Assembly (NCBI GenBank): GCA_963977135.1 | Contig: CAXBNN010000009.1 | Location: 6,771 to 70,770, forward strand | Direction of reading: 5' to 3' | Origin: an uncultured Flavobacteriales bacterium | Lineage (GTDB): Bacteria; Bacteroidota; Bacteroidia; Flavobacteriales_D; Crocinitomicaceae | Length of the DNA stretch: 64,000 nucleotides | Part shown: positions 3,853 through 37,129 of the stretch, piece after piece | Layout of the letters: each line of letters begins with the position of its first letter | Position numbering within the stretch: the first letter of the stretch is position 1 | The notes under the pieces: generated by a model | What the model was told of the DNA's origin: nothing | Database searches by the model: none | Seen by the model: only the letters and a program-made list of their open reading frames with translations | Made by a program: the position numbers and the translations under genes

Positions 3853-4992
3853 TTACGAATCTAGCGGATTTTTTATAATTGCAAAAGTATTTGTTGCAAC
3901 ATGAGTATAAATTTCAGTCGTTTTACTGGATTTATGTCCCAATAGAGTTTGTATATAGCGTAAATCCGTTCCAGATTCTAGTAGGTGAGTGGCAAAACTA
4001 TGTCGCAACATGTGCGGATTAACACGTTTATGAATTCCTACTATTCGAGATGCTTTGGTAAGTATTGCAGAAACACTCGTAGTGCTGTATTTATTGCCAT
4101 CTGGCGACTCAAATAACCAATTTTTCGGTCTGTGTTTTTTATAGTAAACCCGTAAATCAAGTAATACTTTTTCAGACAATATAGTCAGTCGATCTCGATT
4201 TCCTTTTCCTTGGTTCACACGAACCAACATGCGTTTGCTATCAATATCTTCAGGTTTCAAGTTCAATAGCTCACCGATGCGCAAACCTGAAGAATACATT
4301 AAACTCAATAAGCACTTGTGTTTAATAGTGGAAGTTGCTTCAATAATATCTTTTACTTCTTGCTTAGCCAATACTTTGGGTAAAGTGTGTTCCTTTATAG
4401 GTCGATCTATACTGTAAAACCGATTCGGCATTCCCTTTACAACTTCATAATAAAATTTTATACTGTTGATCATTAGATTGACATAGGAATTAGACTTCTT
4501 TTCTTGAATCAATTTTTGTAAATACAGCTCCACGTCCTGTTCGTTGATCCGCATCAAGTCGGTTTCCTTTTGCGCATTGATGAATTTCTCAAAACATTGC
4601 ACATACGTTTTTACCGTATTGTTGGCGTATCGTTTCAACTCCAGTTTCAACAAATATTCCTCTGGACAAGTCCTATAGCCTGGGGTTATGATGCGTTTTC
4701 TAAACCAATCTACATTTATTTCTTCGTTCTCTTTATTAATTCTACTCTTAGAAAATAAATAGTTGCTATTTATCCACGCAATGCCGCGAAATTTCTGATA
4801 AATCAAGTTTAAATTTCCTTTCGTATTGGGTACATACGCCATCCCAAACTCCTTGCTCCACTTGATGTTGGGCAATTCTTTCAACAACGCTTGAACAACT
4901 TTATCCGGATGAAACTGTAAGCCAATATACTTCTGTTCTGCAATTAACAAATGCTTCAACGTGATTGATTTTTTATAGTCCATTTTGCTCAT
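3853..4992 (-). CDS. tyrosine-type site-specific recombinase/integrase
   Basis: 379 aa. C-terminal catalytic region GLRIGELLNLK...HMLRHSFATHLLESGTDLRYIQTLLGHKSSKTTEIYTHV carries the R..HxxR..Y signature. SAM-like N-terminal core-binding domain (YANNTVKTYVQCFEKF). Confidence 0.9.
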   Translation of the reverse strand: MSKMDYKKSITLKHLLIAEQKYIGLQFHPDKVVQALLKELPNIKWSKEFGMAYVPNTKGNLNLIYQKFRGIAWINSNYLFSKSRINKENEEINVDWFRKRIITPGYRTCPEEYLLKLELKRYANNTVKTYVQCFEKFINAQKETDLMRINEQDVELYLQKLIQEKKSNSYVNLMINSIKFYYEVVKGMPNRFYSIDRPIKEHTLPKVLAKQEVKDIIEATSTIKHKCLLSLMYSSGLRIGELLNLKPEDIDSKRMLVRVNQGKGNRDRLTILSEKVLLDLRVYYKKHRPKNWLFESPDGNKYSTTSVSAILTKASRIVGIHKRVNPHMLRHSFATHLLESGTDLRYIQTLLGHKSSKTTEIYTHVATNTFAIIKNPLDS

Positions 4993-5076
4993 TTTTCAAC
5001 AAAAGAACCCCAAATCAAACCTACTTCACAAATTTAACCGTAGATTTAAACGTTTAATTCGACGGTTAAAATTTCA

Positions 5077-5110
5077 TTTCGTGCTCATTCGTGCATTAGT
5101 GGCAAAAAAA
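5077..5110 (+). repeat. copy of the ttcgtg...attcgtgcattNgtggcaaaa repeat family (see 43495-43619 and 44071-44103)
   Basis: tttcgtgctcattcgtgcattagtggcaaaaaaaa. The 21-nt core attcgtgcattagtggcaaaa differs by 1 nt from the copies at 43.6 and 44.1 kb. It abuts the ATG at 5113. Confidence 0.7.
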
Positions 5111-5112
5111 AT

Positions 5113-5493
5113 ATGACTGAAAATAAAACTTGTTTAAACTGCCAAAAACCCATAGAAGGAAGAGTAGGCAAGAAATACTGCGATGCTTATTGCAAGTCCA
5201 ACCATTTCTACGAAAAAAACAAAACGAAAGACCAGTCCTTTTTCAAATCCATAGACTTACAACTCAAGAAAAACAGAAGAATTTTAAAAGAGTATAACAA
5301 GGCAGGAAAAGCTACCGTTCGAGAAGAAATTTTATTGGCGGAAGGATTTAACCCAAAATTTTTCACTCATTTTTGGCGCAACTCCGAAGGAAAGGCATAT
5401 ATCTTTTGCTATGAATACGGCTTCATGAAAATAACGGAAAACGATAAAACGAAATATTCTCTTGTGACTTGGCAAAACTACATGAATAGATAA
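5113..5493 (+). CDS. small Zn-ribbon protein, function unknown
   Basis: 126 aa. N-terminal CLNCQKPIEGRVGKKYCDAYC (CxxC...CxxxC). Divergent from the integrase. Confidence 0.5.
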   Translation: MTENKTCLNCQKPIEGRVGKKYCDAYCKSNHFYEKNKTKDQSFFKSIDLQLKKNRRILKEYNKAGKATVREEILLAEGFNPKFFTHFWRNSEGKAYIFCYEYGFMKITENDKTKYSLVTWQNYMNR

Positions 5494-5514: not shown

Positions 5515-6183
5515 TCATAAATCCACCAAGCGAAAAATATAACTCCATTCTCCAAGTTTCTTCTCCTTGTGAACTTTCTTAAAAACAATTTTCTGCTCAA
5601 TTGCTAGTTCCTTGATTTTCTCAATTTCACAATCTTGAGAAAGGATAAGAAAAGTTTGGTTTTCGGTAAGCACAGCTTTTTCGTGTAATTGCGCAAACAA
5701 ACGAGTAAAATACTCAAAGTTTGCACCACAGTAAAAAGCACTTTCAGTTGAATTTTCAGGATCCTTTGGGTAGTAAGGAGGATTGATTAATATAAAATCA
5801 AAATCGGAAGCTTGGAGATTTTCAAAAAGGTCGGAGCTAAGGACCGTAATAGGAATTTTTGTTTGTAAGCTGTTCTTTTTCAATCCTGCAATTGCCATTG
5901 GATTAATGTCACTAGCCGTTACAATTGCTTTTTTGTATTTCGCTGCGTAAAAAGAAATCATCCCACTTCCAGCCCCTAATTCCAGCACTTTTTTTCCTTC
6001 AAAATCAAACTTTTGAATGAATTCTATAAAAATATTTGTAGAAAGGAATAGTCCAGGATGAAAAACCGAAGGTTGAATTACCAAATCAATTCCGTATTTG
6101 GAATAGTTGCGCGCACGACTGGAACGAAAAGCATAAATCCTTTTCAGAATTGGAAACAACAGTGATTTGATAATTTTTCTCAC
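5515..6183 (-). CDS. class I SAM-dependent methyltransferase, HemK/MTS-like (NPPY type)
   Basis: 222 aa. Motif I VLELGAGSGMISFYAA and motif IV ILINPPYYP. Confidence 0.8.
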   Translation of the reverse strand: MRKIIKSLLFPILKRIYAFRSSRARNYSKYGIDLVIQPSVFHPGLFLSTNIFIEFIQKFDFEGKKVLELGAGSGMISFYAAKYKKAIVTASDINPMAIAGLKKNSLQTKIPITVLSSDLFENLQASDFDFILINPPYYPKDPENSTESAFYCGANFEYFTRLFAQLHEKAVLTENQTFLILSQDCEIEKIKELAIEQKIVFKKVHKEKKLGEWSYIFRLVDL

Positions 6184-6213
6184 AACTTAAAAATGAAATT
6201 AGTTGACCAATCT

Positions 6214-6221
6214 CAAACTTA
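6214..6221 (-). promoter_or_regulatory. candidate Bacteroidota -7 box (TAagTTTG on the minus strand) for the 5515..6183 methyltransferase
   Basis: The plus strand reads caaactta, 31 bp upstream of the start codon. This is a motif match only. Confidence 0.3.
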
Positions 6222-6564
6222 CCATAAAAATTAAAAGGATACGTCTCTTTCGAGGTCGAGATTTTATATTAAACTCCGTTGGCCTTGATGAACAGGGTTT
6301 TGGAACCGAACTGAAAATGGTGACTTTTGGAGGTAGCTTCGCAGAGTAACGAAGAAGATCACCGATAAAATCCCATTTTTAGGAGTTTTCAAAATGAAGT
6401 GACAAAATCGAGAATTTTATTAAAGTAAAAGCTACACTTCAACTGTTTATCAAAGCCTTGATTTTTTGGTTCTTTTTGTATCAAGACAAAGAACAAAGAG
6501 AATATTTTTGATTGTATGAATTTAATAGATGAGAGAATATTTTTTGTAATCTACATTTTCAAAA

Positions 6565-8076
6565 TTACTCTGAATAAAACCCTTGCTCTTCCGGTTGACG
6601 ATAGCGCCATAATTTATGCAAAGCTTTTATTTCATAGGGAAAAGCATAGATGCCAGAATGATAGCGCCAAGAGGAAACAGCTTTAAGTACCCTACGTTTG
6701 AATGGTGTAATTTTGAAGTCCGTTTGCGTCGGTGAAAAAGCATTCAAAACCGTTTCAAAATTTTTAATGGTGTCGATATGCTTTTTAGTCAGCCAAGGCG
6801 TGAGTGGGTTTTTGCGCAAATCAAAACGCTCCCAAGCTGGGCTTAACCAATCTTCTAAATGTTGTGGGAACTGAAAACCGTGTTCTTGAATTTTCTCATA
6901 CAATTCACTTCCTTCCGTCGGGACTGGACTGTAAACGTATATGATGATTTCGGTATTTGGATTGAGTTTTTTTATTGTTTTTATAAATTGAATATCGTCG
7001 TTGATTTGCTTTGTAACTTTCGCTGGATCATCGTTGGGCATTCCGAGTACAAAACTATATTCTGGAATGATGCCTATTTTCCCCAAACGAGTTGCAAATT
7101 CTTTGATCTGTTTACTGGTTTGCGTTCCGCCTTTGTCCATTTGCTTAAGGACTTCATCATTTCCAGTTTCGGCACCGAGGAAAATCATTTTTAGTCCTGC
7201 TTTTTTCATCAATAGCAAATCGTCATCAGAGTATTTGTTGATGGTATCAATTCGACCTTCTCCCCACCAAGAAATATTGTAGGGCATTACTTTTTCCGCA
7301 AATTCAACCACTCTTTTGCGAGAAGTAAAGAAATTATTGTCGTGAAATTCTACAGCATCAATTCCATATTTTTCTGAGAATAATCGAATGTCGTCTACGA
7401 TTCTATCGGCCGGTAATCCTTTCCATTTGGCATTGTAAATAGGAACTACTGCACAAAAAGAACAAGTAAATGGACAACCAAAACTGGAATGATAAGAAAA
7501 AGTTTTTCTCCCCATAAAAGTCTTGGCCAAGTAGTTTTTTACTGGATAGGTTTCGTCTAATTTCTGATAAGGAAAAGGAGGCAAGGTTTCCATTTCTGGA
7601 AGTGCTGCTTTCTTGGTTTTTACATATTCATTTCCCGACTTAAAAATTAGATTGGGAATATCTTTCAGTTCCATTTTTGTTTTTCCTTCAAGATGGTCAA
7701 GAAGTGATGGAAAAGCTTCGTCACCAGGACCGTTAATGACGTAGTTGACAAAGCCAGAATCAAGTGCAACTTGGTATTGATTCGAAGCAAAATATCCTCC
7801 CCAAACAACGTGTGTTTTCGGGTATTTTTCTTTTATAATTTTTGAAAAGGGAATAGCTTGTTGCAATTGAGGTCCAGGCATTACGGTCACGCCAAAGAAA
7901 TCAATATCTCCTTTATCAAAATAGGACTCGATTTTCGCTAGTGGATCTTTCTCTAAGTTGCCATCAACGAAAATATAATCGTGTTTCCCTTCAATAGAAC
8001 CTCCCACTTGCAAAATGGAATTCGGAATACGGTGTTTGGCATCTGCACTCCTAGGATTAAAAAGAATTCCTTTCAT
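6565..8076 (-). CDS. B12-binding-domain radical SAM protein (class B rSAM), paralogue A
   Basis: 503 aa. N-terminal Rossmann-like segment HVVWGGYFASNQ...INGPGDEAF. Cluster motif FGCPFTCSFCAV (CxxxCxxC). Long C-terminal extension. Confidence 0.85.
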   Translation of the reverse strand: MKGILFNPRSADAKHRIPNSILQVGGSIEGKHDYIFVDGNLEKDPLAKIESYFDKGDIDFFGVTVMPGPQLQQAIPFSKIIKEKYPKTHVVWGGYFASNQYQVALDSGFVNYVINGPGDEAFPSLLDHLEGKTKMELKDIPNLIFKSGNEYVKTKKAALPEMETLPPFPYQKLDETYPVKNYLAKTFMGRKTFSYHSSFGCPFTCSFCAVVPIYNAKWKGLPADRIVDDIRLFSEKYGIDAVEFHDNNFFTSRKRVVEFAEKVMPYNISWWGEGRIDTINKYSDDDLLLMKKAGLKMIFLGAETGNDEVLKQMDKGGTQTSKQIKEFATRLGKIGIIPEYSFVLGMPNDDPAKVTKQINDDIQFIKTIKKLNPNTEIIIYVYSPVPTEGSELYEKIQEHGFQFPQHLEDWLSPAWERFDLRKNPLTPWLTKKHIDTIKNFETVLNAFSPTQTDFKITPFKRRVLKAVSSWRYHSGIYAFPYEIKALHKLWRYRQPEEQGFYSE

Positions 8077-8170
8077 TTTTGTTAGCTCAATTTCTAAAGA
8101 AGCTTAAAGATAGAAGATTCTTGACGTCTAGCAAATAATACAATTGTCAGTCGTTTGTGATAGAAAAGCA

Positions 8171-8409
8171 AACCACGATTAGCCGGATTAGAGGATTACC
8201 GAGATTTCAATATGCTTGTGTGTTTAGGTTATCTAAATTAATCGTGGTTATCTTATCATCCATAAAATCCTGGTTAAAATGGAGAAACCACGATTTAAAG
8301 CCTGCCTGTCGACAGACAAGGATTTCAGATTTCCTGGATTTCATTTTACTTGTGCGTTCGGGTTATACTAAATAATCATGGTAATCCCTTAATCCGGCTA
8401 ATCGTGGTT
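8171..8409. repeat. MITE-like / REP-like element with 30-bp terminal inverted repeats
   Basis: aaccacgattagccggattagaggattacc (8171-8200) versus the reverse complement of ggtaatcccttaatccggctaatcgtggtt (8380-8409): 28/30 identical. Internal extra copies of aaccacgatt in the order fwd/rev/fwd/rev (8171, 8241, 8287, 8400). Internal 10-bp palindrome ctgtcgacag. ORF 8157..8375 inside it looks spurious. Confidence 0.6.
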
Positions 8410-8578
8410 AATTTTTAAAGAATCCCTTGTCGGGCGGAGCCTTTCATTTTTTCTGTTTACCTTTCAGCATTGTAAATCGAATAAGCTTCAATCCATCTCA
8501 AACTCAAAGAATATAGCGATTATAACTCCAGGTTTTCCATCGGATGAGAACGATACAACTTGCATTCCTGCGCTTCAA

Positions 8579-9532
8579 TTGTTCGTCCGAGAACTGAGTA
8601 AGCAGAATGTTCAGATAACTGTTTTCACACTTCATTATCCTTACCGGAATCAGGAATATTTCTGGAACGGAATTACTGTTGTTCCGCTAAACGGAGAAAA
8701 TAAGTTTCTTCGTCGAAAATTTATGTTTCCTAAGTTGAAAACAATCTTTGCAGAAAAAGAACAACTGTTGAAATTTGATATTATTCATGCGTTTTGGTTG
8801 AATGAAGCCACAAGTTTCGCCATAAAACTGGGCAAAAAATTGAATATTCCAGTTATTGCAACGGCTATGGGACAGGATGTATTGAAACAAAACGGCTGGT
8901 TAAAGAAGATGGATTTTTCATTTTTGTCGGAAATCATAATGCTTTCAAAATTTCATCAGAACGAAGCAAAGAAAAGTAGTGTCGAAAATTCTAGAGTTAT
9001 TCACTTTGGAATTGAGGCTTTTCTAGAAAGTGTACCAAATAAAATCTACGATTTCATAGCCATTGGAAATTTAATTCCTCTGAAGCAATTTGATTATTTT
9101 ATTGATGTTTTAGCTGAAGTTAAAAAACAAGCGCCTGGATTTAGAGCTATTGTTATAGGTGATGGAATTGAAAGAAAGGCATTGACCGACCGTATTCAAA
9201 AAAATGGGCTCGAAGAGAATATAGAACTTTGTGGTTTACTTTCATATGCAGATACAATGGAAATGCTGGCTTCGTCCAAAGTTTTAATTCATCCATCCAA
9301 ATATGAAAGTTTTGGGATGATTTTTATTGAAGCTCTGAATTTACAAACCCATGTCTTGGCCTCACAAGTTGGGTTAGCAATGGAGGAGGAACAAATTCAC
9401 AAATTGCAATTTGACGTAAAACATGATGCAGAATTAGCTTTGAGATTATTGGAACAGCCAAAACCGAAACAGAAAGTTTACGAAATAAAAGAAACAGTAA
9501 AAGCTTATCTTGAAATCTACAATCGTTTCTGA
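8579..9532 (+). CDS. GT4-family glycosyltransferase; the annotated TTG start is probably not the true N-terminus (possible 5' truncation or non-canonical start)
   Basis: C-terminal ESFGMIFIEALNLQTHVLAS (EX7E-type GT-B motif). The frame stays open upstream to the stop at 8399-8401 and encodes KNIAIITPGFPSDENDTTCIPALQ (about 8507-8578), a typical GT4 N-terminal strand, but there is no ATG/GTG/TTG in that stretch. Confidence 0.7.
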   Translation: MFVRELSKQNVQITVFTLHYPYRNQEYFWNGITVVPLNGENKFLRRKFMFPKLKTIFAEKEQLLKFDIIHAFWLNEATSFAIKLGKKLNIPVIATAMGQDVLKQNGWLKKMDFSFLSEIIMLSKFHQNEAKKSSVENSRVIHFGIEAFLESVPNKIYDFIAIGNLIPLKQFDYFIDVLAEVKKQAPGFRAIVIGDGIERKALTDRIQKNGLEENIELCGLLSYADTMEMLASSKVLIHPSKYESFGMIFIEALNLQTHVLASQVGLAMEEEQIHKLQFDVKHDAELALRLLEQPKPKQKVYEIKETVKAYLEIYNRF

Positions 9533-10266
9533 ACCATCAACCAAGTAAAAGGTGAGCGCTTTTTAAAAATCTTCAATTTCCATTTTTTCGGTCGATAGAA
9601 AATGGAGTATCCAGAAGGCAAATGATTCCAAATCAAATGATGATAATATTCATTTGCTTGCGGTTCACCAATGTTTTCGAAATAATCAACGGATCTTTCT
9701 TGAGCGTCTTTTTGATCTCTTTGATAGTAAATTGGACTGTCCAATATGTGAATTTCACCTCGTGTATCGAGCAAACTATCTAGAACATCCCAGAATTCTT
9801 TAGTCAATTCAAAGTACTGTATGCTGGCATTGAAGGTGATTAAATCAAATGATTTTTCAGGTAAAAGACTCAAATCTGTACAACATACAAAATGCAAATT
9901 TTCATTTTGAAAACAACGTGCCGCTTGCTCTAGCTCTTCTTTTCCTACGTCCAATCCAACAACAAATTCAGGTTTTCCTAACAGTTGATTGGTGAACCAA
10001 CCGTTGCCACAGCCTATGTCCAAAACTCTGTGAAATGGCTTCAACTTGGTGTATTTCTGAAATTTTTTAACCGTAAATTGTCTCTTTTTCCATTCTGCAA
10101 AATGAGGATGTGTATTTGGCAGAAAGGGTAACTTTTTTACGAGATCATCATCCAATAAACGATTTTCCTTTTTGCGCACTTTTAAATAAACTGATTCGAA
10201 ATCTGTTTTCGCTTGCGTTAAATAATAAACGCCATTTTCGCTTTTGGAAAGAAATTCTGGTTTCAT
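9517..10266 (-). CDS. class I SAM-dependent methyltransferase
   Basis: 249 aa. Motif I VLDIGCGNGWFTNQL. ATGA overlap with the upstream rSAM gene. Its 3' end overlaps the convergent GT4 gene by 16 bp. Confidence 0.8.
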   Translation of the reverse strand: MKPEFLSKSENGVYYLTQAKTDFESVYLKVRKKENRLLDDDLVKKLPFLPNTHPHFAEWKKRQFTVKKFQKYTKLKPFHRVLDIGCGNGWFTNQLLGKPEFVVGLDVGKEELEQAARCFQNENLHFVCCTDLSLLPEKSFDLITFNASIQYFELTKEFWDVLDSLLDTRGEIHILDSPIYYQRDQKDAQERSVDYFENIGEPQANEYYHHLIWNHLPSGYSIFYRPKKWKLKIFKKRSPFTWLMVQKRL

Positions 10267-11615
10267 TTAGCGTTGATATTCATGAGTAAATAAGACAATT
10301 TGGCTTTCAATTTTGGCACCAAAGCATTTGTTCTTTCCGCTTTCCAACTGTTCATGAGATAACGAATCGAATGGCGATAAAATCGATTGGAGTAAGGCAA
10401 TTCAATTTGAATTTCTCTGTCTGTGCTTTTTGACCAATCGCTCGGCAACAGTAACTTGTTTTCAACTTCGGTATACAAACTTGTACCTTTTATGGGATAT
10501 GCTTTTGTTATCGTCAGATAATTCGGCCGACAAGCAACCAGATATTCTTTGGTCAATCGGATATCTTCCTTTGTTTCTCCAGGATAACCAACCATAATAA
10601 AAGTTCCTGCTTCCATTCCTAATTCTTGCGTTCGCAGAATTCTATCTTTCACTTCTTCCAAAGAAACGCGGCGATCCATTTTATCAATAATTTTCTGAGA
10701 ACCACTTTCGGCACCAATCCAAATTCGGAAACAACCCATTTCTTTGAGTTGCATTAACACTTCATCTGGCAATCGTTCAGCTCGCGTAATGCATTCAAAA
10801 TCGATTTTTAAATTGTGTTTTTTGAACTCATCATAGAGTTCGCTTATCCATTTGTGACTAACGGTAAAAACGTCGTCCACAAACCAAAGTGCTTCAACTT
10901 GGAACTTATTTTTAAGTTCTAAAATTTCCTCCACAACCTTATTTGGAGGGTTTCTTCTATAACTTTGACCGTAAACTGCAGTACTACACCATTTGCACGT
11001 GTACGGACAGCCTCGTTGCGTGCTAATATTTGCCGTTCGTTTACCATGATGTTGACCCCAAACTTCGAGGTATTTTTCGAATGGAATGGAATCTCTATCT
11101 GGAAAAGGTATGTCTTGAAGTTCTTTAATTTTTGTTCGTGAAGGAGTTGTAATCACTTTATCTCCAGCAAGAAGAGCAATTCCTTCTATTTCCGAAATAT
11201 CACCTTTTTGTTCTAATGCGGAAGTTAATTCCAACATGGTTTGCTCCCCTTCTCCAATTATTGCAAAATCAAAACCTGCGCGTAAATAGTTTTCTGTATT
11301 GTAAGTTACGTCGGGTCCACCAACGATTAAAGAACAGTCAGGAAGATTTTTTTTGATAAATTGAACCAGCTCCAAGACCCTTATTTTGGTCATTAAATTG
11401 GTGTAAAACGCAATGATTTTCGGCTGAATTTCAAGAATATCATTTTGCCATTTTTCCTGTGATGAAAATGTACTGTCCAAAACCGTAACATCCTTCTTCT
11501 GTTCTTTTAAGAAACTTGAAATATAAAGTAAACCCAAAGTCGGGTATGGGCGCATGATTTCCAATTCTTTAGGGTCTTCGGAAAGAAAATAACCATGCGT
11601 TAATACAATTTTCAT
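10263..11615 (-). CDS. B12-binding-domain radical SAM protein, paralogue B
   Basis: 450 aa. LIVGGPDVTYN...IIGEGEQTM (B12-like domain) and QRGCPYTCKWCS (CxxxCxxC). Clear N-terminal similarity to paralogue C (MKIVLTHGYF / MKILLTHSYF). Confidence 0.85.
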   Translation of the reverse strand: MKIVLTHGYFLSEDPKELEIMRPYPTLGLLYISSFLKEQKKDVTVLDSTFSSQEKWQNDILEIQPKIIAFYTNLMTKIRVLELVQFIKKNLPDCSLIVGGPDVTYNTENYLRAGFDFAIIGEGEQTMLELTSALEQKGDISEIEGIALLAGDKVITTPSRTKIKELQDIPFPDRDSIPFEKYLEVWGQHHGKRTANISTQRGCPYTCKWCSTAVYGQSYRRNPPNKVVEEILELKNKFQVEALWFVDDVFTVSHKWISELYDEFKKHNLKIDFECITRAERLPDEVLMQLKEMGCFRIWIGAESGSQKIIDKMDRRVSLEEVKDRILRTQELGMEAGTFIMVGYPGETKEDIRLTKEYLVACRPNYLTITKAYPIKGTSLYTEVENKLLLPSDWSKSTDREIQIELPYSNRFYRHSIRYLMNSWKAERTNALVPKLKAKLSYLLMNINAK

Positions 11616-11624
11616 TGGTACAAT

Positions 11625-12398
11625 TTACTTCCTTTTCGTCAATTGAATGTAATAATGATCAGCGTAATTCGCTAAAAAGCTGAACGAAAGAAAACGATCT
11701 TTGAATGCTAGAATTGAAATTAGCCAGCTTTTGTTTGAAAACCAATGCGAAAGATAGGAGGGAGGAACTAATAATCCGATAGGTTTTAGTTTTTCGACCT
11801 TAAAATTTGAACCAGCTAATTTCTTAATCTCTTTCGGAGAATAATACCAAGTTTGAATCGTTTCATTTTCTACTGAAACAGAAATTGATTGATAGGTATT
11901 TCGTCGGCCGATTTCACTGAATTTTCCTTTTGCCAATAGGAAAAGATTATCCCAAATACAGTTTTTACCCATAATCAATAGGATAATTTTGGCATCTGCT
12001 TTTAAATTTTGATTCGCTTCGAGAAAGAACTGCTTTATTTCAGCACTTGAGAGACAATTGAAACCGCCAAAATTTGAGAATATGATATTTTTTCCTCTTA
12101 ATTCTTCTCGACAATTTTTGATATCCAATTGTTTGAAATCGATAGATGGAAATTTTGATTTTGAAACCTTGACCATTTCTTGAGAAATATCTGTTGCTAG
12201 AATGTGCATTTTACGTTCTTCCCAGCGTGAAGCATCTTCACCAGTTCCACAATTCAGTTCGAGCACATGACTGTTTTGGGGAAATCTATTTTTATCGATA
12301 TGTCTCCAAACTGCATTGCGCTGTGCTATTCCAATGTTTGTATTGGTGAAAGTTTCATCGTAACGAGTGGCGGCTTTGTCAAAAGATTCTTTCTCCAT
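11625..12398 (-). CDS. class I SAM-dependent methyltransferase
   Basis: 257 aa. Motif I VLELNCGTGEDASRW. The start abuts the stop of the upstream rSAM gene (TAA-ATG). Confidence 0.8.
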   Translation of the reverse strand: MEKESFDKAATRYDETFTNTNIGIAQRNAVWRHIDKNRFPQNSHVLELNCGTGEDASRWEERKMHILATDISQEMVKVSKSKFPSIDFKQLDIKNCREELRGKNIIFSNFGGFNCLSSAEIKQFFLEANQNLKADAKIILLIMGKNCIWDNLFLLAKGKFSEIGRRNTYQSISVSVENETIQTWYYSPKEIKKLAGSNFKVEKLKPIGLLVPPSYLSHWFSNKSWLISILAFKDRFLSFSFLANYADHYYIQLTKRK

Positions 12399-13820
12399 TT
12401 AGCGAATTTTAAATTGGAGATATTTCGCAGCGATGAGGTTGTAAGGAGCTAAAACTGCATAACGCCATGAAATAAATGAATTCCAGTTCTTCCATTTTTT
12501 CATTCCTTGCTGGAAACGAAATTGATGATGGACGAAACGTTGCAGCGTTTTATAATAGTTTGAATCATAGGTTCCTTTGAACATCAAATCCAAATCATCA
12601 GAATCGGTCCAGTTTGATTTTTTACTCAATTGACTTTTTACTGTTTCATAAAAAGGAGTTCCAGGCAAAGGATAGGAAACCGAAATACCTATGTCATCAG
12701 GCTGGTTTTTACGAACCATTTCGGTGGTTAATTTGATATCCTCTTTGGTTTCTCCCAAGTATCCGAATTGTAGAAAATAAGCAACTCGAACACCTTGTTC
12801 TTGTAACATCTCTGTTGATTTATTAATTTGTGCAACAGTCGTTCCTTTGTCCATCGCATCCAATATTTTCTGTGAACCACTTTCGGCGCCTATCCAAACT
12901 TCTTCTAAGCCAGAATCGGCTAGTTCACGAATGGTTTCGTCTTTCAACAATAAATCTGCTCTACTTTGAATTTTATACTTGAATTTAAGTTTTTTCTCCT
13001 GAATCAATTCATTGAAACGTTTCACCCAACCGGGTTTTAATCCGAAGATGTCGTCAGTCATCCAAATGTTTTGAACGCCAAATTTGGTAATGAGCATTTC
13101 TATTTCTTCAACAACGTTTTCTGGACTTCGTGCATTGTAGCGATTTCCATAGATAGGTTTAGCACACCAATTGCATTTAAAAGGGCAACCTCTTGTTGTA
13201 GAAACGTTTAAGGTAAAAGGAAACTTGCTGTTTTTCCATATTGATTTATACTTATCGATATCAATAGCACTCCATTTTGCTATCGGAATCACGTCCAAAT
13301 CATTTAAGTTAAGCCGAGCTTTTGTTTTGGTGATTTTATCCTCATGGAGAAAGCTAATTCCTTCAATTGTGGATATATCTCCATTCTTTTCGATAGCTTT
13401 TAAACATTCCGTTAGCGTGATTTCTGCTTCACCATGAATGACAATATCCGCTCCAGAATCATGATACATTTGTGCATGATCTGTAGAATCAGAACTTGAT
13501 ACAATAACTTTGGCTCCGATTTCTTTGGCGGCGGAAATCATTTCAAAACACGCATGACGCATATTGGTCAAGCACATTTTCGTTAGGTAATTGAAACCAT
13601 CTTCATAAATCACAACAACACTAGGTTTGTTTGCCCGGATGTATTCAATACATTGGCTCGGTCCAGAATCTAATGCAACATCATAAAAATCGGATTGAAA
13701 ACCTTCTTGCTCAATTTTAGCCAATGCAGTAATCGTCGCCAAAGGTGCATAGGGCGTTTGATTAGCCCATTGTTTTTTATCCAGCTGATAGAAATAACTA
13801 TGCGTAAGTAATATCTTCAT
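12399..13820 (-). CDS. B12-binding-domain radical SAM protein, paralogue C
   Basis: 473 aa. VIHGEAEITL (B12-like domain) and TRGCPFKCNWCA (CxxxCxxC). 1-nt overlap (TAATG) with the upstream gene. Confidence 0.85.
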   Translation of the reverse strand: MKILLTHSYFYQLDKKQWANQTPYAPLATITALAKIEQEGFQSDFYDVALDSGPSQCIEYIRANKPSVVVIYEDGFNYLTKMCLTNMRHACFEMISAAKEIGAKVIVSSSDSTDHAQMYHDSGADIVIHGEAEITLTECLKAIEKNGDISTIEGISFLHEDKITKTKARLNLNDLDVIPIAKWSAIDIDKYKSIWKNSKFPFTLNVSTTRGCPFKCNWCAKPIYGNRYNARSPENVVEEIEMLITKFGVQNIWMTDDIFGLKPGWVKRFNELIQEKKLKFKYKIQSRADLLLKDETIRELADSGLEEVWIGAESGSQKILDAMDKGTTVAQINKSTEMLQEQGVRVAYFLQFGYLGETKEDIKLTTEMVRKNQPDDIGISVSYPLPGTPFYETVKSQLSKKSNWTDSDDLDLMFKGTYDSNYYKTLQRFVHHQFRFQQGMKKWKNWNSFISWRYAVLAPYNLIAAKYLQFKIR

Positions 13821-14728
13821 TACATCGCTTTCTTTTCTTCCAAAATTGGGAGGTATTCTTTTTGGAAACGAGTTTGAAGTTCTTCAAATTGTTGAAGTAC
13901 CTTATTTTGAAAATCGTGCGGATGATGTTTCGAAACGTATGGTCTTGACTTCATTGTTAAATCAAATTTAGATTGATCAAACTCTGAGAATTTTCTCTTC
14001 CATCTGTTAAAAGTCAATTGCATAAATTTTCGATCTAACCACTCGCCAAATCTGTTATCAAGCAAGCGCGTAATGATTTTAGACAAAATCGGTTTTTTAA
14101 TTTTCGTTTCTTCACTCTTTCTCAAATCCCTAGTTTTTCGCTCATCTGAAACCCAACTATTTTCTAGGTAAAATTTAGAAAAAATGGAACCTTTTGCTGG
14201 AATTAAAGTCGCAATTTCCGTGGCAGTAAAAAGATTTCTCTCTTCAATTGCAAGATGTTCATTATCAATAAAATAGTTCACGCAAAAAAACTTTCGAGAA
14301 TTCAATAAGAAGATTTTTTTATAAAGAATAAGTAAAGTTCTCGCTATCCACAACCTCTGTGCTTTGGTGATGATAAAAAAATCAAAATCGGCTTCATCCA
14401 TTAAAACTCCTTTTGATAAGGAACCCGAAATTCCAACCCCTTCTACATAAGGAAATTTTGATATGAAGTTAGCTACTTTCAAGGCTTTAGGCAACATGTG
14501 TTTTGCCTTGGCGTTCCCTTTTTTTCTATTTTCTATTTTTGAACCTAAATCAAATACAGTATAATATTCTTCATCCTGAAGAACCAAGTTTTGTTCAACT
14601 AAGGAGCTAAGTTCAATTTCGATATCCTCTATTCCTATGGCAAAAGCAATTTCCTTTTTGGTTAATGGGTAACCAAAAATTTCACTGTATATAAGTTGAT
14701 TAAGGATTTTTTGCTTTACAGGATTCAC
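13820..14728 (-). CDS. hypothetical protein, N-terminal wHTH-like region plus Pol-beta-type nucleotidyltransferase-like core
   Basis: 302 aa, GTG start. GVGISGSLSKGVLMDEADFDFFIIT fits the hG[GS]x9-13DxD minimal NTase motif. First gene of the coupled operon 14728 to 9517. Confidence 0.5.
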   Translation of the reverse strand: MNPVKQKILNQLIYSEIFGYPLTKKEIAFAIGIEDIEIELSSLVEQNLVLQDEEYYTVFDLGSKIENRKKGNAKAKHMLPKALKVANFISKFPYVEGVGISGSLSKGVLMDEADFDFFIITKAQRLWIARTLLILYKKIFLLNSRKFFCVNYFIDNEHLAIEERNLFTATEIATLIPAKGSIFSKFYLENSWVSDERKTRDLRKSEETKIKKPILSKIITRLLDNRFGEWLDRKFMQLTFNRWKRKFSEFDQSKFDLTMKSRPYVSKHHPHDFQNKVLQQFEELQTRFQKEYLPILEEKKAM

Positions 14729-22974: not shown

Positions 22975-23550
22975 CTAATTGTTCTTAATAAATTTCAACA
23001 TTTTCTCAATTGCTCTCCCTCTATGGCTGATTTTGCTTTTCTCGCTCATTTCCATTTCAGCGAAGCTACAATTTGCTTCGTCTGGTTGAAAAATGGGGTC
23101 GTAGCCAAAACCTTTGTTCCCTTTTCGTTCTTTGAGAATTTTTCCTTTAACGACGCCCTCGAATTGGTAAAACTCACCTTCCCAATAAAGCGAAATAATT
23201 GTTTTGAATTGAGCATTTCGGTTTTCGTTTCCTTCCAACTTTTTTAAAAGCAAATCCATGTTGGCTTCACTGTTTTTGTCTTCGCCTGAGTAGCGAGCTG
23301 AATAAACGCCAGGTTCACCATTCAATGCTTCAACCTCTAAACCTGTATCGTCCGCAAAACAATTTTCTTCAAATTTCTTTGCCACAAACTCTGCTTTGAT
23401 CCGCGCATTTTCTTCCAAAGTCGAACCTGTTTCGGGAATTTCGTCGTGGTAATCGAGTTCGCTTAAAGTTGTTAGTTCAACGCTAAAAGGCAATTGAGAA
23501 GCAATTTCCATTGCTTTGTGTGAGTTGTGTGTAGCAAATATTAATGTCAT
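22975..23550 (-). CDS. rdgB: non-canonical purine NTP pyrophosphatase (RdgB/HAM1 family)
   Basis: 191 aa. FATHNSHKAMEI...ETGSTLEENA...DDTGLEVEALNGEPGVYSARY...GFGYDPIF. Confidence 0.9.
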   Translation of the reverse strand: MTLIFATHNSHKAMEIASQLPFSVELTTLSELDYHDEIPETGSTLEENARIKAEFVAKKFEENCFADDTGLEVEALNGEPGVYSARYSGEDKNSEANMDLLLKKLEGNENRNAQFKTIISLYWEGEFYQFEGVVKGKILKERKGNKGFGYDPIFQPDEANCSFAEMEMSEKSKISHRGRAIEKMLKFIKNN

Positions 23551-24617
23551 TTTTTCTGGAATAGATTTCTATAAATTTTTTCTTGCGACAAAACGGAATA
23601 GGCATCAATAATGCGTTGTCGACCGTTCATGGCAATTTGTTTTCTTTTGCTTTCATCGGTTAAAAGTTCATCCAATAAGTTGAACCAATCTTCTTCCGTT
23701 TTGGCGAAAAAACCATTTTCATTGTCTTTAACGATAGTTAAATTAACACCAACCGGTGAAAGAACCGTTGGAATGGCACATGCCATATATTGCAAACCTT
23801 TGAAACCGCATTTTGCAGCCGACCAACGATCTTCTTTCAAAGGCATAACTCCAATTTGTATTTCAGCTAAATCTTGTATTTCAGTTTCTTTTTTCCATTT
23901 GATGAACTCTAAATTAGGTAATTTCCAATCGGGAGCTTGGTTAGAAATTAATCGAAAAAGGTATTCATGTTTTTTATTAAGTCTTTCCAATACAGGCAAA
24001 AGTTCATCCAAATAATGCATTGTAGTATGCGTACCTGTCCAACCAATTCTTAAAGGTTTTTGCTCTGGTTTTGAAAGAATGTTGTGATGATTTTCGGTAT
24101 CGATAGTTGTTGGAAGAACAATTACATTCTTATTAAATTTTGAAGCATAAGTCGATAAAAATCTATTTCCTGCAGTTACTTGTCCAGCCCAGCGTATGAT
24201 AAAAGGAACTTTCCAGTATGCTTTTAATCTTTGAAAACGTGCATTGGTTTCGCTGAAATTTGGAATCCAAATAGCATCGTCAAAATCGTAGATGTATTTT
24301 TTCCTGAGAACTTTTGCTAATATCCATTCTATAATTGGTGGACCAATTTGTGTTGCTTCGCGGTGAATGAAAATATGGTCGGCTTTGGCTAATTTTGGCA
24401 GTAAAGCTAATCTTCGGGCAAAGCTACCAAGCATTTTTCTTGCTTTGAATCCAAATTGACCAGGAACATACAATTTCTTCCAAGTTTCTTGGTCGATGAA
24501 AGGATGAATTTCTATTTCGAATTCTTTTTCCAAGAATGAAAGGTATTGTTCAAAGCGGAAACGCTGAGAGGGCGCAGATCCGACTGGATAAGGAACAAGA
24601 AAGATTATTTTCTCCAT
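23547..24617 (-). CDS. glycosyltransferase (GT-B fold, GT1/GT4-like)
   Basis: 356 aa. Located in the polysaccharide operon. 13-bp overlap with the upstream gene and 4-bp overlap with the downstream gene. Confidence 0.6.
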   Translation of the reverse strand: MEKIIFLVPYPVGSAPSQRFRFEQYLSFLEKEFEIEIHPFIDQETWKKLYVPGQFGFKARKMLGSFARRLALLPKLAKADHIFIHREATQIGPPIIEWILAKVLRKKYIYDFDDAIWIPNFSETNARFQRLKAYWKVPFIIRWAGQVTAGNRFLSTYASKFNKNVIVLPTTIDTENHHNILSKPEQKPLRIGWTGTHTTMHYLDELLPVLERLNKKHEYLFRLISNQAPDWKLPNLEFIKWKKETEIQDLAEIQIGVMPLKEDRWSAAKCGFKGLQYMACAIPTVLSPVGVNLTIVKDNENGFFAKTEEDWFNLLDELLTDESKRKQIAMNGRQRIIDAYSVLSQEKIYRNLFQKK

Positions 24618-25840
24618 AATCGTTCGTAAATGTCGGAATAGATTTTGATTCCCTTGACGATATCGAAATAATCTTTTGCACCTGAACGGGTTAGTTCCGG
24701 GTTGAAATTTGATTTATCGAGTTCTACATTTCTATAGTTTTCATCCTTAAGTTCATTTATAACCAAGCCAGAATTGTATTTTGTTACTACGGAATCCGTA
24801 TCACCAACTCCAGAATTACACAATACAGGAATGCCCATTCCCATTATTTCTCCTTGTTTGACCGGTGAAGAAGCCTGCTTAGAAAAGCTTGGAATAATAA
24901 AGAATATGGAGAAATCAAAAAGTGAAATGTATAATGGCATTTTGTTTCTTGGACTTGAAGTTATGCGAATTGCTTCAGTATTTATTCCTTTTGATACAGC
25001 CAATTCCTGTATCATTTGTGGATTTTCATTGGTCACAAAAAGGAAGATTGCTTTATCGTTTTTGGAATGAAACACTTTGAAAAAATCTAACATTTCGGGC
25101 AGCATATACCACGTTCCAATTGACCCAACGTAACCTAAAACGAAATTTTCATCTTTAATTTCATGCTGAGTACGTAGCGATTCTTGTTCCGCTATAACTA
25201 TGTGAGATGGATTAAATAGATCCATATCCGCACAACAAGGTATAACATCAATTTTTACTCGATTACTTTTCCAAGAATCCCAGGTTTCAATAACTTCTTT
25301 TCCTTTGTTTGTTAAGGAAACGATAGCATCTGCTTGAGATAGGAATTTACCTTCTTGTTTTTTGAAGAAGGTATAGGTTCGTTTGAAAACAGGATTGCTC
25401 AAATTCCAGATTTTTCCTTCAACTCGTTCATCAGCCCAAAATCCTCGCATGTCGAAAAGAAATTTGGTGCCGAATCGCTTTTTCATTCCCAGACCGACTA
25501 TTGCAGAAAGATAACTACGGCAATGAACAATACTGAATTTTTCTGTTTTATTTAGTTGGTACGCCAACTTCTTCATACGCTGAATGTCGTATAACGTAGA
25601 CAATAAAGGTGGCTTTTTTGTATAAGAAAGAGGGTGCCAGATTATGTTGCTTCGCGTGCAGATAGCTTCAATTACAGCTTTGTTTTCATGGAATCGTTCT
25701 TCTTTTTCGAAACTGATGATATGAAAAAGAACGTTTTTTTTAGCGGCTAAACCTTCCAAATAAGGCAAAACTTGAGACTGACCGAGCGAATCCGTCATCC
25801 CGTCATAGGAGAGATATAGAACATTTTTTACTTCATCCAT
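24605..25840 (-). CDS. GT4-family glycosyltransferase
   Basis: 411 aa. N-terminal LYLSYDGMTDSLGQSQVLPYL motif is typical of a GT4 subgroup. Confidence 0.7.
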   Translation of the reverse strand: MDEVKNVLYLSYDGMTDSLGQSQVLPYLEGLAAKKNVLFHIISFEKEERFHENKAVIEAICTRSNIIWHPLSYTKKPPLLSTLYDIQRMKKLAYQLNKTEKFSIVHCRSYLSAIVGLGMKKRFGTKFLFDMRGFWADERVEGKIWNLSNPVFKRTYTFFKKQEGKFLSQADAIVSLTNKGKEVIETWDSWKSNRVKIDVIPCCADMDLFNPSHIVIAEQESLRTQHEIKDENFVLGYVGSIGTWYMLPEMLDFFKVFHSKNDKAIFLFVTNENPQMIQELAVSKGINTEAIRITSSPRNKMPLYISLFDFSIFFIIPSFSKQASSPVKQGEIMGMGIPVLCNSGVGDTDSVVTKYNSGLVINELKDENYRNVELDKSNFNPELTRSGAKDYFDIVKGIKIYSDIYERLWRK

Positions 25841-27732: not shown

Positions 27733-27747
27733 TGCTTTCTAAGCTAT

Positions 27748-28875
27748 TTAGCCAAAGTATTTACGATACAAATCGTATAGTTTTGTCAATCGTTTTTCGT
27801 CATTAGGATAATCGCGATACGTTTTTACCGGAAGTTTCATGATTTCCTCAAATTGTTCGACCGAAATCTCAAACTTCTTAGCAATATAAGCTTTTTCAGC
27901 ATCTATTGTTTCGGGATTGTAGGACAATTTTTTTAATTCTTCAATTGCTTCCTCACGCTTTGCTGTCCCTGCACAAATTTGTGTAGCATAAGTGGCTCTT
28001 CGGTAATCAATTCCGAACTTAACAGGTTGTATATACGATTGAACGAATCCGGTAAATTTACTTTCGTAATGCTTTCCGCCGTAATATTTCCAACCCAACT
28101 CTTCTTTAAGAAATGCCATGGCTTTATCTTTATCATAGGGCAGATAATTGAGCAAATACATCATTTTGATGCCTTTTACGAATTTGAAATAAATTTCTTT
28201 TTTAAAATCAAACGTAGGAAAGGTTTTCAGTTTTTTTGAACCAAATTGCTTTTGAATACTGTTCAATAATTTTGAATCTTTTGGGTCGTAAAACCAACTA
28301 TTTGGTAAGATTCCTTCAGTTGCAAAGTTACCTCCAGAAATAATGTATTTAATATTATTTTCTGCTGCTATTCGGTGTAATGCTCCTGGAATTGCTATAT
28401 CGGTTGGGATTTCCATTTCAACAATTGAAGCTTTCAAAAAAGAAAGCTGTAAATCCTTGAACTCCTCCCAATTGAGTACGTAACTTTGGTAGTCAATGTC
28501 CAATTTTCCACATACATTTTTAATATTTTGAACAGCTTCTTCTGAGTTCCAACCGTTGTCGAGATGCACAGCCAAAGATCTTAATCCTAGTTTTTTACAC
28601 TGGTAAGCAACATAAGAACTGTCAACTCCTCCGCTAACGCCGATAAGGCAATCGTATTCGTTGTTTTTACCTTTTTCCTGAATATTTTTCACCCATTCAG
28701 CGAGTTGTTTGTCGCTTTCAGTGCCAACATAAGAACGCTTGGCTGTTTTGGTTAAAAACTCTGTACAATGATTGCAATTTCCCTCATTGTCGAACTCAAT
28801 AAAAGGATCGCTCGTATCCATTACGCAGCGCTGACAAATTTGGTATTCTCTATCCGACATTCGGTGATTTTTCAA
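27748..28875 (-). CDS. N-acetyl sugar amidotransferase (WbpG/LPS PP-loop family)
   Basis: 375 aa. N-terminal Cys-rich CQRCVMD...CNHC and PP-loop CLIGVSGGVDSSYVA. Sits directly upstream of the HisF/HisH paralogues, as in known acetamidino-sugar loci. Confidence 0.8.
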   Translation of the reverse strand: MKNHRMSDREYQICQRCVMDTSDPFIEFDNEGNCNHCTEFLTKTAKRSYVGTESDKQLAEWVKNIQEKGKNNEYDCLIGVSGGVDSSYVAYQCKKLGLRSLAVHLDNGWNSEEAVQNIKNVCGKLDIDYQSYVLNWEEFKDLQLSFLKASIVEMEIPTDIAIPGALHRIAAENNIKYIISGGNFATEGILPNSWFYDPKDSKLLNSIQKQFGSKKLKTFPTFDFKKEIYFKFVKGIKMMYLLNYLPYDKDKAMAFLKEELGWKYYGGKHYESKFTGFVQSYIQPVKFGIDYRRATYATQICAGTAKREEAIEELKKLSYNPETIDAEKAYIAKKFEISVEQFEEIMKLPVKTYRDYPNDEKRLTKLYDLYRKYFG

Positions 28876-29636: not shown

Positions 29637-29638
29637 AT

Positions 29639-30259: not shown

Positions 30260-30313
30260 GTTGCGAAGATAAGGAAAAGGGTTGGTGACTTTCAATTGAA
30301 TTCTTCAAAACTC

Positions 30314-32907: not shown

Positions 32908-32962
32908 TTGTTTTTTACTTCTGCTAAATATAGCAACGAATTATAGAACCGTTTTTACTAAT

Positions 32963-34063: not shown

Positions 34064-34068
34064 AATTT

Positions 34069-37114: not shown

Positions 37115-37129
37115 TTAACAAAGCGGATT

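Follow-up and report, generated by a model that had tools for sequence, protein, structure and literature searches.

Cobalamin-dependent (B12-dependent, or class B) radical S-adenosylmethionine (SAM) enzymes are among the largest enzyme groups with mostly unknown reactions. In several natural-product pathways they are combined with class I SAM-dependent methyltransferases, as in the biosynthesis of bottromycin, polytheonamide, gentamicin (GenK/GenD1 with GenN/GenL) and cystobactamid and in the BzaC/BzaD/BzaE set. The cystobactamid enzyme CysS (structure 9n1b) extends a methyl group that has been placed on oxygen, its partner being an O-methyltransferase. In fosfomycin biosynthesis, the cytidylyltransferase Fom1 attaches a nucleotide handle first and the B12 radical SAM enzyme Fom3 then C-methylates, and the hopanoid enzymes HpnI, HpnK and HpnJ, which modify a glycolipid head group, comprise a glycosyltransferase, a deacetylase and a B12-type radical SAM enzyme. 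Nucleotidyltransferases such as ANT, AadA and LinB adenylylate sugar hydroxyls of amino-sugar antibiotics. Here we describe a gene cluster in which three predicted class B radical SAM enzymes (rSAM1 to rSAM3), three class I methyltransferases (MT1 to MT3), a GT4 glycosyltransferase and a nucleotidyltransferase-like protein (NT) lie side by side. It was found in a stretch of 64,000 nucleotides ("the window") from an uncultured Flavobacteriales bacterium of the Crocinitomicaceae (GCA_963977135.1, contig CAXBNN010000009.1, positions 6,771 to 70,770). An earlier note on this DNA had regarded the adjacency of radical SAM enzymes and methyltransferases as outside textbook chemistry. As sets of both are known in secondary metabolism, the pairing itself is not anomalous.

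The cluster is real and is conserved in several hundred Flavobacteriales species. We read it as a conserved cassette of cytoplasmic enzymes that tailor a cell-surface polysaccharide or glycolipid of these bacteria, a reading to which we give about even chances. Its components, with their predicted functions, are the following:

13820..14728, minus strand: NT, 302 aa, first gene of the operon; winged helix-turn-helix (wHTH) plus Pol-beta-type nucleotidyltransferase
12399..13820, minus strand: rSAM1, 473 aa; class B radical SAM with a B12 domain; TAATG overlap of its start with the NT stop
11625..12398, minus strand: MT1, 257 aa; class I SAM-dependent methyltransferase of the Methyltransf_25 type
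10263..11615, minus strand: rSAM2, 450 aa; class B radical SAM; 32% identity to rSAM1
9517..10266, minus strand: MT2, 249 aa; class I methyltransferase of the Methyltransf_11/25 type; ATGA overlap with rSAM2
8579..9532, plus strand: GT4 glycosyltransferase, convergent with MT2 (16-bp overlap); PF00534 and PF13439
6565..8076, minus strand: rSAM3, 503 aa; class B radical SAM with a C-terminal extension of about 100 aa
5515..6183, minus strand: MT3, 222 aa, GTG start; HemK/MTS-type N-methyltransferase with an NPPY motif
6184..6564, no strand: insertion of about 370 nt between rSAM3 and MT3, non-coding
8164..8416, no strand: nested palindromic element in the GT4/rSAM3 spacer, MITE- or REP-like (miniature inverted-repeat transposable element or repetitive extragenic palindrome)

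All eight open reading frames (ORFs) lie where the earlier note had placed them, and the coupled run that it described from 14728 to 9517 is borne out at every junction: TAATG at 13820, TAA abutting ATG at 12398/12399, a 9-nt gap before 11615 and ATGA at 10263-10266. The overlap of MT2 with the converging GT4 gene spans positions 9517-9532. Each radical SAM gene had also been said to stand directly upstream of a different class I methyltransferase. The methyltransferases do differ, but rSAM3 and MT3 are spaced by 380 nt. The window has a G+C content of about 35%, and in this genome the cluster adjoins pyrH and frr. Exact matches to the proteins are found on a 243-kb scaffold from a Tara Oceans metagenome.

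Members of the NT family are numerous. We obtained 5821 matches in a database clustered at 90% identity, which fall into 690 clusters at 50% identity (E <= 1e-30), and the nearest relatives come from uncultured Flavobacteriales, Crocinitomicaceae and Fluviicola. With one genome scanned per species, the NT-family cluster is present in at least 541 species. The 80 loci among the matches listed are nearly all from Flavobacteriales, with a few from Chitinophagales and Saprospiraceae. Gene order was counted in about 80 non-redundant loci or in the subsets given below. The order NT-rSAM1-MT1-rSAM2(-MT2) recurs widely: rSAM1 directly follows NT in 67 of 71 loci, rSAM2 lies within five genes after NT in 55 of 69, and 45 of 69 keep the strict order NT-rSAM1-MT1-rSAM2. 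The overlap of the NT stop with the rSAM1 start is kept in nearly all loci. Three contigs with a Flavobacteriales-type cluster (L024, L075 and L042) have been deposited under metagenome-assembled genomes of Bifidobacterium sp., Bifidobacterium breve and Henriciella pelagia, assignments that are probably binning errors.

The cluster had been described as three iterated pairs of a radical SAM enzyme and a methyltransferase, and this description does not survive the comparison. While MT1 is present in 66 of 81 loci and rSAM2 in about 59, MT2 is found in only 31 and is absent from about half of the loci that carry rSAM2. In four loci (L018, L021, L022 and L080) rSAM2 is absent and rSAM1 is followed by a 517-aa MT2-MT1 fusion with the MT2-like half at its N-terminus. 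MT3 directly follows rSAM3 in eleven loci (L024, L025, L038, L058, L075, L076, L078, L082, L085, L090 and L091), with a gap of 0-14 nt wherever both are inside the same related locus, and the pair is separable from the rest: in one Crocinitomicaceae genome NT stands alone (L017) and rSAM3-MT3 is found elsewhere amid glycan genes (L091). Furthermore, MT1, MT2 and MT3 show no significant similarity to one another by BLAST, and rSAM3 is only 23% identical to either rSAM1 or rSAM2. Hence, the pairs are not a duplicated unit. The cluster is better described as two modules: module A, NT-rSAM1-MT1-rSAM2(-MT2), and module B, rSAM3-MT3, which is able to sit elsewhere in the genome. Module B is often accompanied by a gene for a SPASM radical SAM protein, which lies beside rSAM3-MT3.

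The earlier note had called the system uncharacterised, and we agree: no protein of the cluster reaches a curated NCBIfam cut-off, NT belongs to no Pfam or NCBIfam family, and searches for literature on the cluster and on the "rhizo-twelve" B12 radical SAM system yielded no account of it. Neither lipids, glycans nor Flavobacteria are mentioned in a 2026 review on B12 radical SAM enzymes.

A link to glycans is seen in the genes that surround the cluster. All ORFs of the loci were clustered and the recurrent families annotated, and both flanks of NT were compared as a control. In the 10 kb or so downstream of NT, a recurrent glycosyltransferase (GT) family is present in 49 of 61 loci, as opposed to 2 of 51 in the 9 kb upstream; for GT-C families the corresponding figures are 35 of 61 and 1 of 51. 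A GT lies within the tightly spaced co-directional gene chain of NT itself in 24 of 61 loci. The recurrent neighbours comprise GT4 enzymes, three GT-C-type membrane families (PMT_2-like, GT87-like and one with a "DEAHH" motif), a small GT2 that resembles the polyprenyl-phosphate-sugar synthases PpgS, AglJ and ArnC, Wzx-like/Polysacc_synt flippases, an MsbA-like ABC protein, SGNH and NodB esterases, a sulfotransferase-like family and a secreted arylsulfotransferase-like protein. Polysaccharide deacetylases are a further recurrent feature of some loci. In contigs annotated with Pfam, one set holds Wzy, Wzz, a GT22/PMT_2 enzyme and a DprE1/E2-like fusion, another Wzm/Wzt, Wza and DegT, and yet another AlgX, Wzy and Wzz. 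In Marinilongibacter, the radical SAM and methyltransferase genes are interleaved with GT-C, deacetylase, acetyltransferase and GT4 genes in a single co-directional array. The cluster is thus co-located with genes of surface-polysaccharide biosynthesis, namely GTs, a flippase or ABC exporter, and polymerase or chain-length genes.

Gene fusions tie NT to the same functions. A 681-aa GT4+NT fusion was found in two independent data sources; its gene is followed by an overlapping rSAM1-like gene, and the locus also holds Bac_transf, two Wzy_C genes, RgpF, a carbamoyltransferase and another B12 radical SAM protein. NT is additionally fused to a class I methyltransferase and to Bac_transf, an initiating phosphoglycosyl transferase, in one case each. 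The earlier note had preferred an endogenous glycan or lipid to a ribosomally synthesized and post-translationally modified peptide (RiPP). A glycan as the more likely substrate is supported by the one-sided GT association, by the fusions of NT to GT4 and phosphoglycosyl transferase domains and by the lack of a conserved small ORF. Among the intergenic ORFs of 18-99 aa in the 80 loci no conserved RiPP precursor was found, the largest family being confined to three closely related loci.

Two further families were observed in these neighbourhoods. One (f6) is a secreted protein of about 380 aa that belongs to no Pfam or NCBIfam family and carries an invariant KCxWCHE motif (CxxCH, haem-c-like). 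It is encoded at L065:11803-12951 and in 18 other loci, directly after rSAM2 or a GT-C gene in the Flavobacteriaceae versions of the cluster. The other is the DprE1/DprE2-like fusion of FAD_binding_4 and SDR domains, which lies beside GT22/PMT_2 in some versions. This fusion and the SPASM gene beside rSAM3-MT3 were noted at L089:1-886, L088:17087-17986, L090:8920-9999 and L091:12173-13243.

The three radical SAM proteins contain the CxxxCxxC clusters (CPFKCNWC in rSAM1, CPYTCKWC in rSAM2 and CPFTCSFC in rSAM3) and the GEAE, GEGE and GPGD segments that had been pointed out in them, and the motifs are invariant or nearly invariant in alignments of 73 rSAM1, 60 rSAM2 and 9 rSAM3 orthologues. All three match the radical SAM family PF04055 with 53-85 bits (rSAM1 80.4, rSAM2 85.4). 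The proposed B12-binding segment was recovered by the profile hidden Markov model (HMM) PF02310, whose gathering score is 32.1 bits, in rSAM2 (53.1 bits) and rSAM3 (33.1 bits), but not in rSAM1, which stays below it at 26.1 bits (E = 8e-6). Many rSAM1 orthologues do carry PF02310. The AlphaFold model of rSAM1, with a mean predicted local distance difference test score (pLDDT) of 83.9, gave full-length matches to the methylases TsrM, MgmA, CysS and TokK and to the non-methylases OxsB and AprD4, with TsrM and MgmA ranking first. As judged by HMM and predicted fold, the three proteins of 450-503 aa are class B radical SAM enzymes, and the fold comparison of rSAM1 would be compatible with both methylase and non-methylase chemistry.

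More specific assignments were not obtained. The best NCBIfam match of the radical SAM proteins is BchE, with 110-164 bits (164 for rSAM2) at a cut-off of 481. The PhpK model gives up to 153 bits (cut-off 600), HpnJ 96-131 bits (578), the MgmA family TIGR04014 up to 118 bits (360), TIGR04072 up to 121 bits (360) and BzaD 46-101 bits (450). None of the three proteins reaches the equivalog level of BchE, HpnJ, HpnR, PhpK, MgmA, BzaD, the ladderane radical SAM protein or AprD4. The scores on the PhpK, HpnJ, HpnR, ApyD, MgmA-family and ladderane models are mutually similar, and homology therefore does not pick a reaction. A sequence search of the PDB yielded only remote matches of at most 61.5 bits, the nearest solved structure being 9CCB for rSAM1 and AprD4 for rSAM2, with 9CCB a close second. 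9CCB is MgmA, the glutamine C-methylase of methyl-coenzyme M reductase (PMC11796369). The most conserved protein of the set is rSAM3, whose orthologues are 65-77% identical across Flavobacteriales and Marinilongibacter (Cytophagales). Public databases name the radical SAM proteins "anaerobic Mg-protoporphyrin IX monomethyl ester cyclase", "YgiQ" and "2-hydroxyethylphosphonate methyltransferase". These current names are wrong, as is that of MT3.

All three methyltransferases are class I by Pfam, and PDB searches with their sequences returned remote matches only, of about 31 bits at most. In MT1, motif I (E.NcGtG.D) is conserved among 66 orthologues. MT3 matches PF05175 with 60.5 bits, and its INPPYYP motif is invariant in 9 orthologues. 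Its nearest solved structures are HemK, METTL5 and N6AMT1, enzymes that methylate amide or exocyclic amino nitrogens. The Joint Genome Institute (JGI) labels MT3 a release factor glutamine methyltransferase. We reject this label as unsupported because MT3 remains below the HemK/PrmC equivalog cut-offs (TIGR03534, 65.7 versus 199; TIGR00536, 50.6 versus 115.5) and because its constant partner is rSAM3 and not prfA.

The leading gene had been described as encoding a wHTH-nucleotidyltransferase-like protein, and both parts are seen in the AlphaFold2 model of NT (pLDDT 89.5), which consists of a wHTH, a long helix, a Pol-beta nucleotidyltransferase core and a helical C-terminal domain. The motif had been given as GSx11DxD, whereas its actual form is GS-x10-DxD. 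This G102-S103-x10-D114-F-D116 motif is invariant in 86 NT homologues, and so is the SKHHP motif of the C-terminal helical domain; the invariant residues are S101, G102, D114, D116 and 266-270. By sequence and model, NT can be assigned to the proteins with an hG[GS]-x9-13-DxD catalytic motif on a Pol-beta nucleotidyltransferase fold. Its best Foldseek matches are MntA, ANT(4'), AadA/AAD(9) and LinB at a probability of 0.9-0.99, with weak E-values (6e-3 or higher) and a TM-score of about 0.25 on the query length. The N-terminal domain has the classical wHTH topology, with a beta-hairpin after three helices, and its matches include IclR and TrmB. NT itself matches no Pfam or NCBIfam family, PF01909 (NTP_transf_2) included, and only a few orthologues have a precomputed PF01909 match. 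A search of the PDB with the NT profile gave nothing significant.

We consider it fairly likely that the target of the cassette is a glycan or glycoconjugate and, given such a target, somewhat favour methylation as the reaction of the radical SAM enzymes. Both the chemistry and the substrate are what we infer: the cassette probably tailors by C-, O- and N-methylation. At the cytoplasmic face, NT would nucleotidylate, probably adenylylate, a hydroxyl or phosphate of a sugar-containing intermediate, which would supply a handle or an activated group much as ANT, AadA and LinB do on amino-sugar antibiotics. A sugar acceptor is favoured because NT resembles these enzymes and is fused to GT4. The conservation of the NT/rSAM1 stop-start overlap suggests that the two proteins act together, and by analogy with Fom1 and Fom3 the nucleotide could be a recognition handle for the radical enzyme. 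The cobalamin enzymes would then methylate unactivated carbons, while O- or N-methylation would fall to the class I enzymes, in the case of MT3 on an amide or amine nitrogen. In some of the radical steps, a methyl group that a partner methyltransferase has put on a heteroatom may be extended in the manner of CysS, which would explain why the two enzyme types are frequently adjacent yet not strictly paired. The finished unit would be incorporated into, or exported with, a glycan by the GT4, the polyprenyl-phosphate-sugar synthase, the GT-C enzymes, the flippases and the Wzy/Wzz/Wza-type machinery. In its most specific form, the proposal is that Flavobacteriales decorate a surface polysaccharide with C-methyl (or longer alkyl), N-methyl and O-methyl groups through cobalamin radical chemistry, NT providing a transient nucleotide handle; as a whole, this is tentative and rather doubtful.

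A number of observations weigh against a glycan-tailoring cassette. About 10 of 62 loci have no recognised GT nearby, and of GTs the cluster in the window retains just a single GT4 gene without a canonical start. Since recurrence in the same loci was what defined the GT families, the upstream control undercounts singleton GTs. The fusions of NT to a methyltransferase and to Bac_transf are singletons. Pol-beta nucleotidyltransferases are not the usual makers of nucleotide sugars, and the presence of OxsB and AprD4 among the fold neighbours of rSAM1 means that its chemistry may be other than methylation. Finally, MgmA, the closest sequence relative with a structure, modifies a protein (PMC11796369).

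Such a non-methylating reaction could be accommodated within the glycan setting, if the radical SAM enzymes rearranged or deoxygenated sugars, by ring contraction or carbocycle formation (OxsB, HpnJ) or by diol dehydration (AprD4), and the class I methyltransferases supplied all the methyl groups. OxsB and AprD4 are among the best structural matches of rSAM1, AprD4 is the top PDB sequence match of rSAM2, the HpnJ scores are comparable to those for methylase families, and rSAM1 is below the gathering score for B12 binding. However, the fold search places two methylases first, rSAM2 and rSAM3 pass the B12-binding threshold, none of the curated non-methylase cut-offs is reached, and most characterised class B enzymes are methylases, so that we find sugar rearrangement unlikely. 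A membrane or polyprenyl lipid as the target appears quite improbable. In that case an isoprenoid or acyl chain would be methylated or cyclised, as by HpnP, HpnR, GrsA or ladderane-type enzymes, and the GT genes would merely glycosylate the lipid or be unrelated. Scores of 105-125 bits for HpnR, HpnJ and "lipid biosynthesis B12-binding/radical SAM protein" point in this direction, as does the fact that enzymes using polyprenyl phosphate are the commonest neighbours. Yet these scores are far under the cut-offs of 360-650 bits and no higher than those for BchE, PhpK and MgmA, terpene cyclase, prenyltransferase and fatty-acid genes do not recur in the loci, and NT is fused to GT4 and phosphoglycosyl transferase and not to lipid enzymes.

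The same protein families could also serve the modification of a protein or of a RiPP encoded elsewhere, through C-methylation (as by MgmA, Mmp10 and PoyC), N-methylation by the HemK-like MT3 and AMPylation by an MNT-like NT. The nearest solved sequence relative is the protein glutamine C-methylase MgmA (PMC11796369), there are matches to the RiPP C-methylase families ApyD and rSAM_ocin_1, MT3 resembles protein glutamine N-methylases, and the best fold match of NT is the protein-AMPylating MntA. We nevertheless judge this very unlikely: the small ORFs in and near the 80 loci are not conserved, neither a protease nor a transporter of the RiPP type is recurrent, the scores fall far short of the RiPP and MgmA cut-offs, and the GT association and the NT fusions would go unexplained. 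The N-terminus of NT is also a classical wHTH and not a PqqD-like domain, the peptide-binding domain of RiPP systems. Only a slight chance is likewise left for a diffusible secondary metabolite of the aminoglycoside, nucleoside or phosphonate kind with coincidental glycan neighbours. An ANT-like NT, several class B radical SAM enzymes, N- and O-methyltransferases and a GT4 do resemble aminoglycoside tailoring sets, and PhpK, Sden_1168 and Fom3-like annotations appear. Against this, the cluster behaves like a largely vertically conserved chromosomal locus of hundreds of species, located beside pyrH and frr in the present genome, no locus has 2-deoxy-scyllo-inosose synthase, phosphoenolpyruvate (PEP) mutase, nonribosomal peptide synthetase or polyketide synthase genes, and the export genes nearby are of the polysaccharide type.

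Several narrower candidates were rejected. For anti-phage defence, PADLOC returned only weak generic matches to radical SAM and methyltransferase models and none for NT. Remodelling of the cobamide lower ligand by a Bza-like system was set aside in view of the BzaD scores and of the lack of bzaA, bzaB and cobT nearby, and P- or C-methylation of phosphonates in view of the lack of PEP mutase in any locus. The hopanoid and bacteriochlorophyll pathways were discarded as their cut-offs are missed and their pathway-defining partner genes are in none of the loci.

If the glycan-tailoring reading is correct, it would add a new type of chemistry to the tailoring of bacterial surface polysaccharides, and the cluster would represent the first example of a bacterial cell-surface glycan tailored by class B radical SAM enzymes. 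Marine and freshwater Flavobacteriales are largely auxotrophic for B12. The surface structure of these bacteria would then depend on environmental vitamin B12, and B12 supply would be linked to recognition by phages, grazers and hosts in abundant marine heterotrophs. The cluster offers three orphan radical SAM subfamilies and an unclassified nucleotidyltransferase family in a conserved and genetically tractable form, and its cultured carriers include Aquimarina, Kordia, Winogradskyella, Tenacibaculum, Algibacter and Marinilongibacter.

In the genome analysed here, module A looks intact and tightly coupled, whereas the glycosyl-transfer side looks reduced. The GT4 protein has the GT-B fold domains Glycos_transf_1 (PF00534, 80.3 bits) and Glyco_transf_4 (PF13439, 38 bits). 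Its frame is open from 8402, after a stop at 8399-8401, and contains no ATG, GTG or TTG between that stop and 8579. The open stretch 8402-8579 encodes the conserved N-terminal strand KNIAIITPGFP without a canonical start ahead of it. The public gene call is only 269 aa long, compared with 350-363 aa in orthologues, and in the closest syntenic relative (L085), in which NT is 69% identical and the cluster likewise lies beside pyrH and frr, the GT4 is called intact at 363 aa from an upstream start. In the window, the GT4 may start at a non-canonical codon, may have lost its start codon or may be truncated at the N-terminus. Fluviicola-type clusters have PMT_2-like GT-C and arylsulfotransferase-like genes between GT4 and rSAM3; both are missing from the window and from L085.

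The non-coding insertion upstream of MT3 (about 370 nt) is specific to the lineage of this genome, as the alignment shows a gap of only 14 nt at this place in L085 versus 380 nt in the window. It has no second copy within the window, and neither this gap nor that between GT4 and rSAM3 contains a credible ORF. The latter gap holds the element of about 250 nt at 8164-8416, which is bounded by inverted repeats of 43 nt and contains the core AACCACGATT four times. When single-stranded, this DNA is predicted to fold with -45.7 kcal/mol (z = -6.6). Its absence from L085 and from 88 other loci makes it look like a MITE- or REP-like insertion. Just past MT3, positions 3853-5493 hold a gene for a tyrosine recombinase similar to XerA and integron integrases (217 bits, cut-off 220) together with a divergent ORF for a Cys-rich protein of 126 aa that belongs to no family. 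In L065, a similar integrase (40% identity) and small ORF (31% identity) are found about 5 kb upstream of NT. Both genes are missing in L085, hence the integrase marks a later insertion and not mobility of the cluster, and we dropped the idea of a mobile island.

Rfam detected neither RNA elements within the cluster nor, across the window, a cobalamin riboswitch. A scan for sigma-70 promoters and terminators found no more sites than in shuffled sequence, with models that do not cover Bacteroidota promoters. Elsewhere in the window, positions 23547-41633 (minus strand) are occupied by a large polysaccharide locus of the ABC-transporter type with five GT4 genes and Wzm/Wzt. It also encodes an asparagine-synthase-like amidotransferase, two Acyl_transf_3 proteins, a glucuronyl C5-epimerase-like protein, DUF6625 and a trio of NAD-synthase-like, HisF-like and HisH-like proteins, which resembles the WbuX/Y/Z set for acetamidino sugars. 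A 50-nt direct repeat (43574-43623 and 44058-44107, 86% identical) is located in the intergenic region between the quinolinate phosphoribosyltransferase gene and the next ORF, and two divergent thiamine pyrophosphate riboswitches lie about 200 nt apart at 47522-47615 (minus strand, 69.9 bits) and 47821-47919 (plus strand, 57.6 bits; gathering score 54.3).

Compared with the systems introduced at the outset, the components of the cassette look familiar. TsrM, MgmA (9CCB), CysS and TokK share the domain order, in which a Rossmann B12 domain at the N-terminus precedes a radical SAM barrel that carries CxxxCxxC. Full-length superposition of the rSAM1 model on them gives TM-scores of 0.6-0.7 and E-values down to 1e-20, but sequence identity to these solved methylases is only 15-19%. 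Their known substrates are tryptophan, a protein glutamine and carrier-bound aromatic or carbapenem intermediates, and none of these enzymes is known from a glycan locus. Similarly, ANT(4'), AadA/AAD(9), LinB and MntA share with NT the Pol-beta core with GS...DxD and a C-terminal helical domain, while NT has an additional N-terminal wHTH, the family-specific SKHHP motif and no Pfam match. Moreover, it leads a biosynthetic operon, whereas they are resistance or toxin-antitoxin genes. The nucleotidyltransferase domain of Fom1, for its part, is not of the Pol-beta type, and in contrast to the Fom1/Fom3 system the cassette has no PEP mutase or phosphonate genes and scores far below the PhpK and Sden_1168 cut-offs.

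As for the setting, ArnC/ArnT, PpgS with its GT-C partner and GtrB/GtrC correspond to the PpgS/AglJ/ArnC-like GT2, the GT-C enzymes and the flippases among the recurrent neighbours, but they involve neither a radical SAM enzyme nor a Pol-beta nucleotidyltransferase, and the GT-C and GT2 genes are missing in the window. HpnI/HpnK/HpnJ offers the same combination of a GT, a deacetylase and a radical SAM enzyme, deacetylases being present in some of the loci, although no locus has squalene-hopene cyclase or another hpn gene. Natural-product clusters of radical SAM enzymes and methyltransferases likewise mix C-methylation with O- or N-methylation on one scaffold. They contain a precursor peptide or scaffold gene and are narrowly distributed, whereas the present cassette is widespread, linked to surface glycans, has no scaffold gene and is led by NT. 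In summary, every part comes from a known superfamily (class B radical SAM, class I methyltransferase, Pol-beta nucleotidyltransferase and GT4), none of them from a characterised family at equivalog level, and it is the setting that is unusual: a widespread chromosomal cassette that is wired into surface-polysaccharide loci and led by an unclassified wHTH-nucleotidyltransferase.

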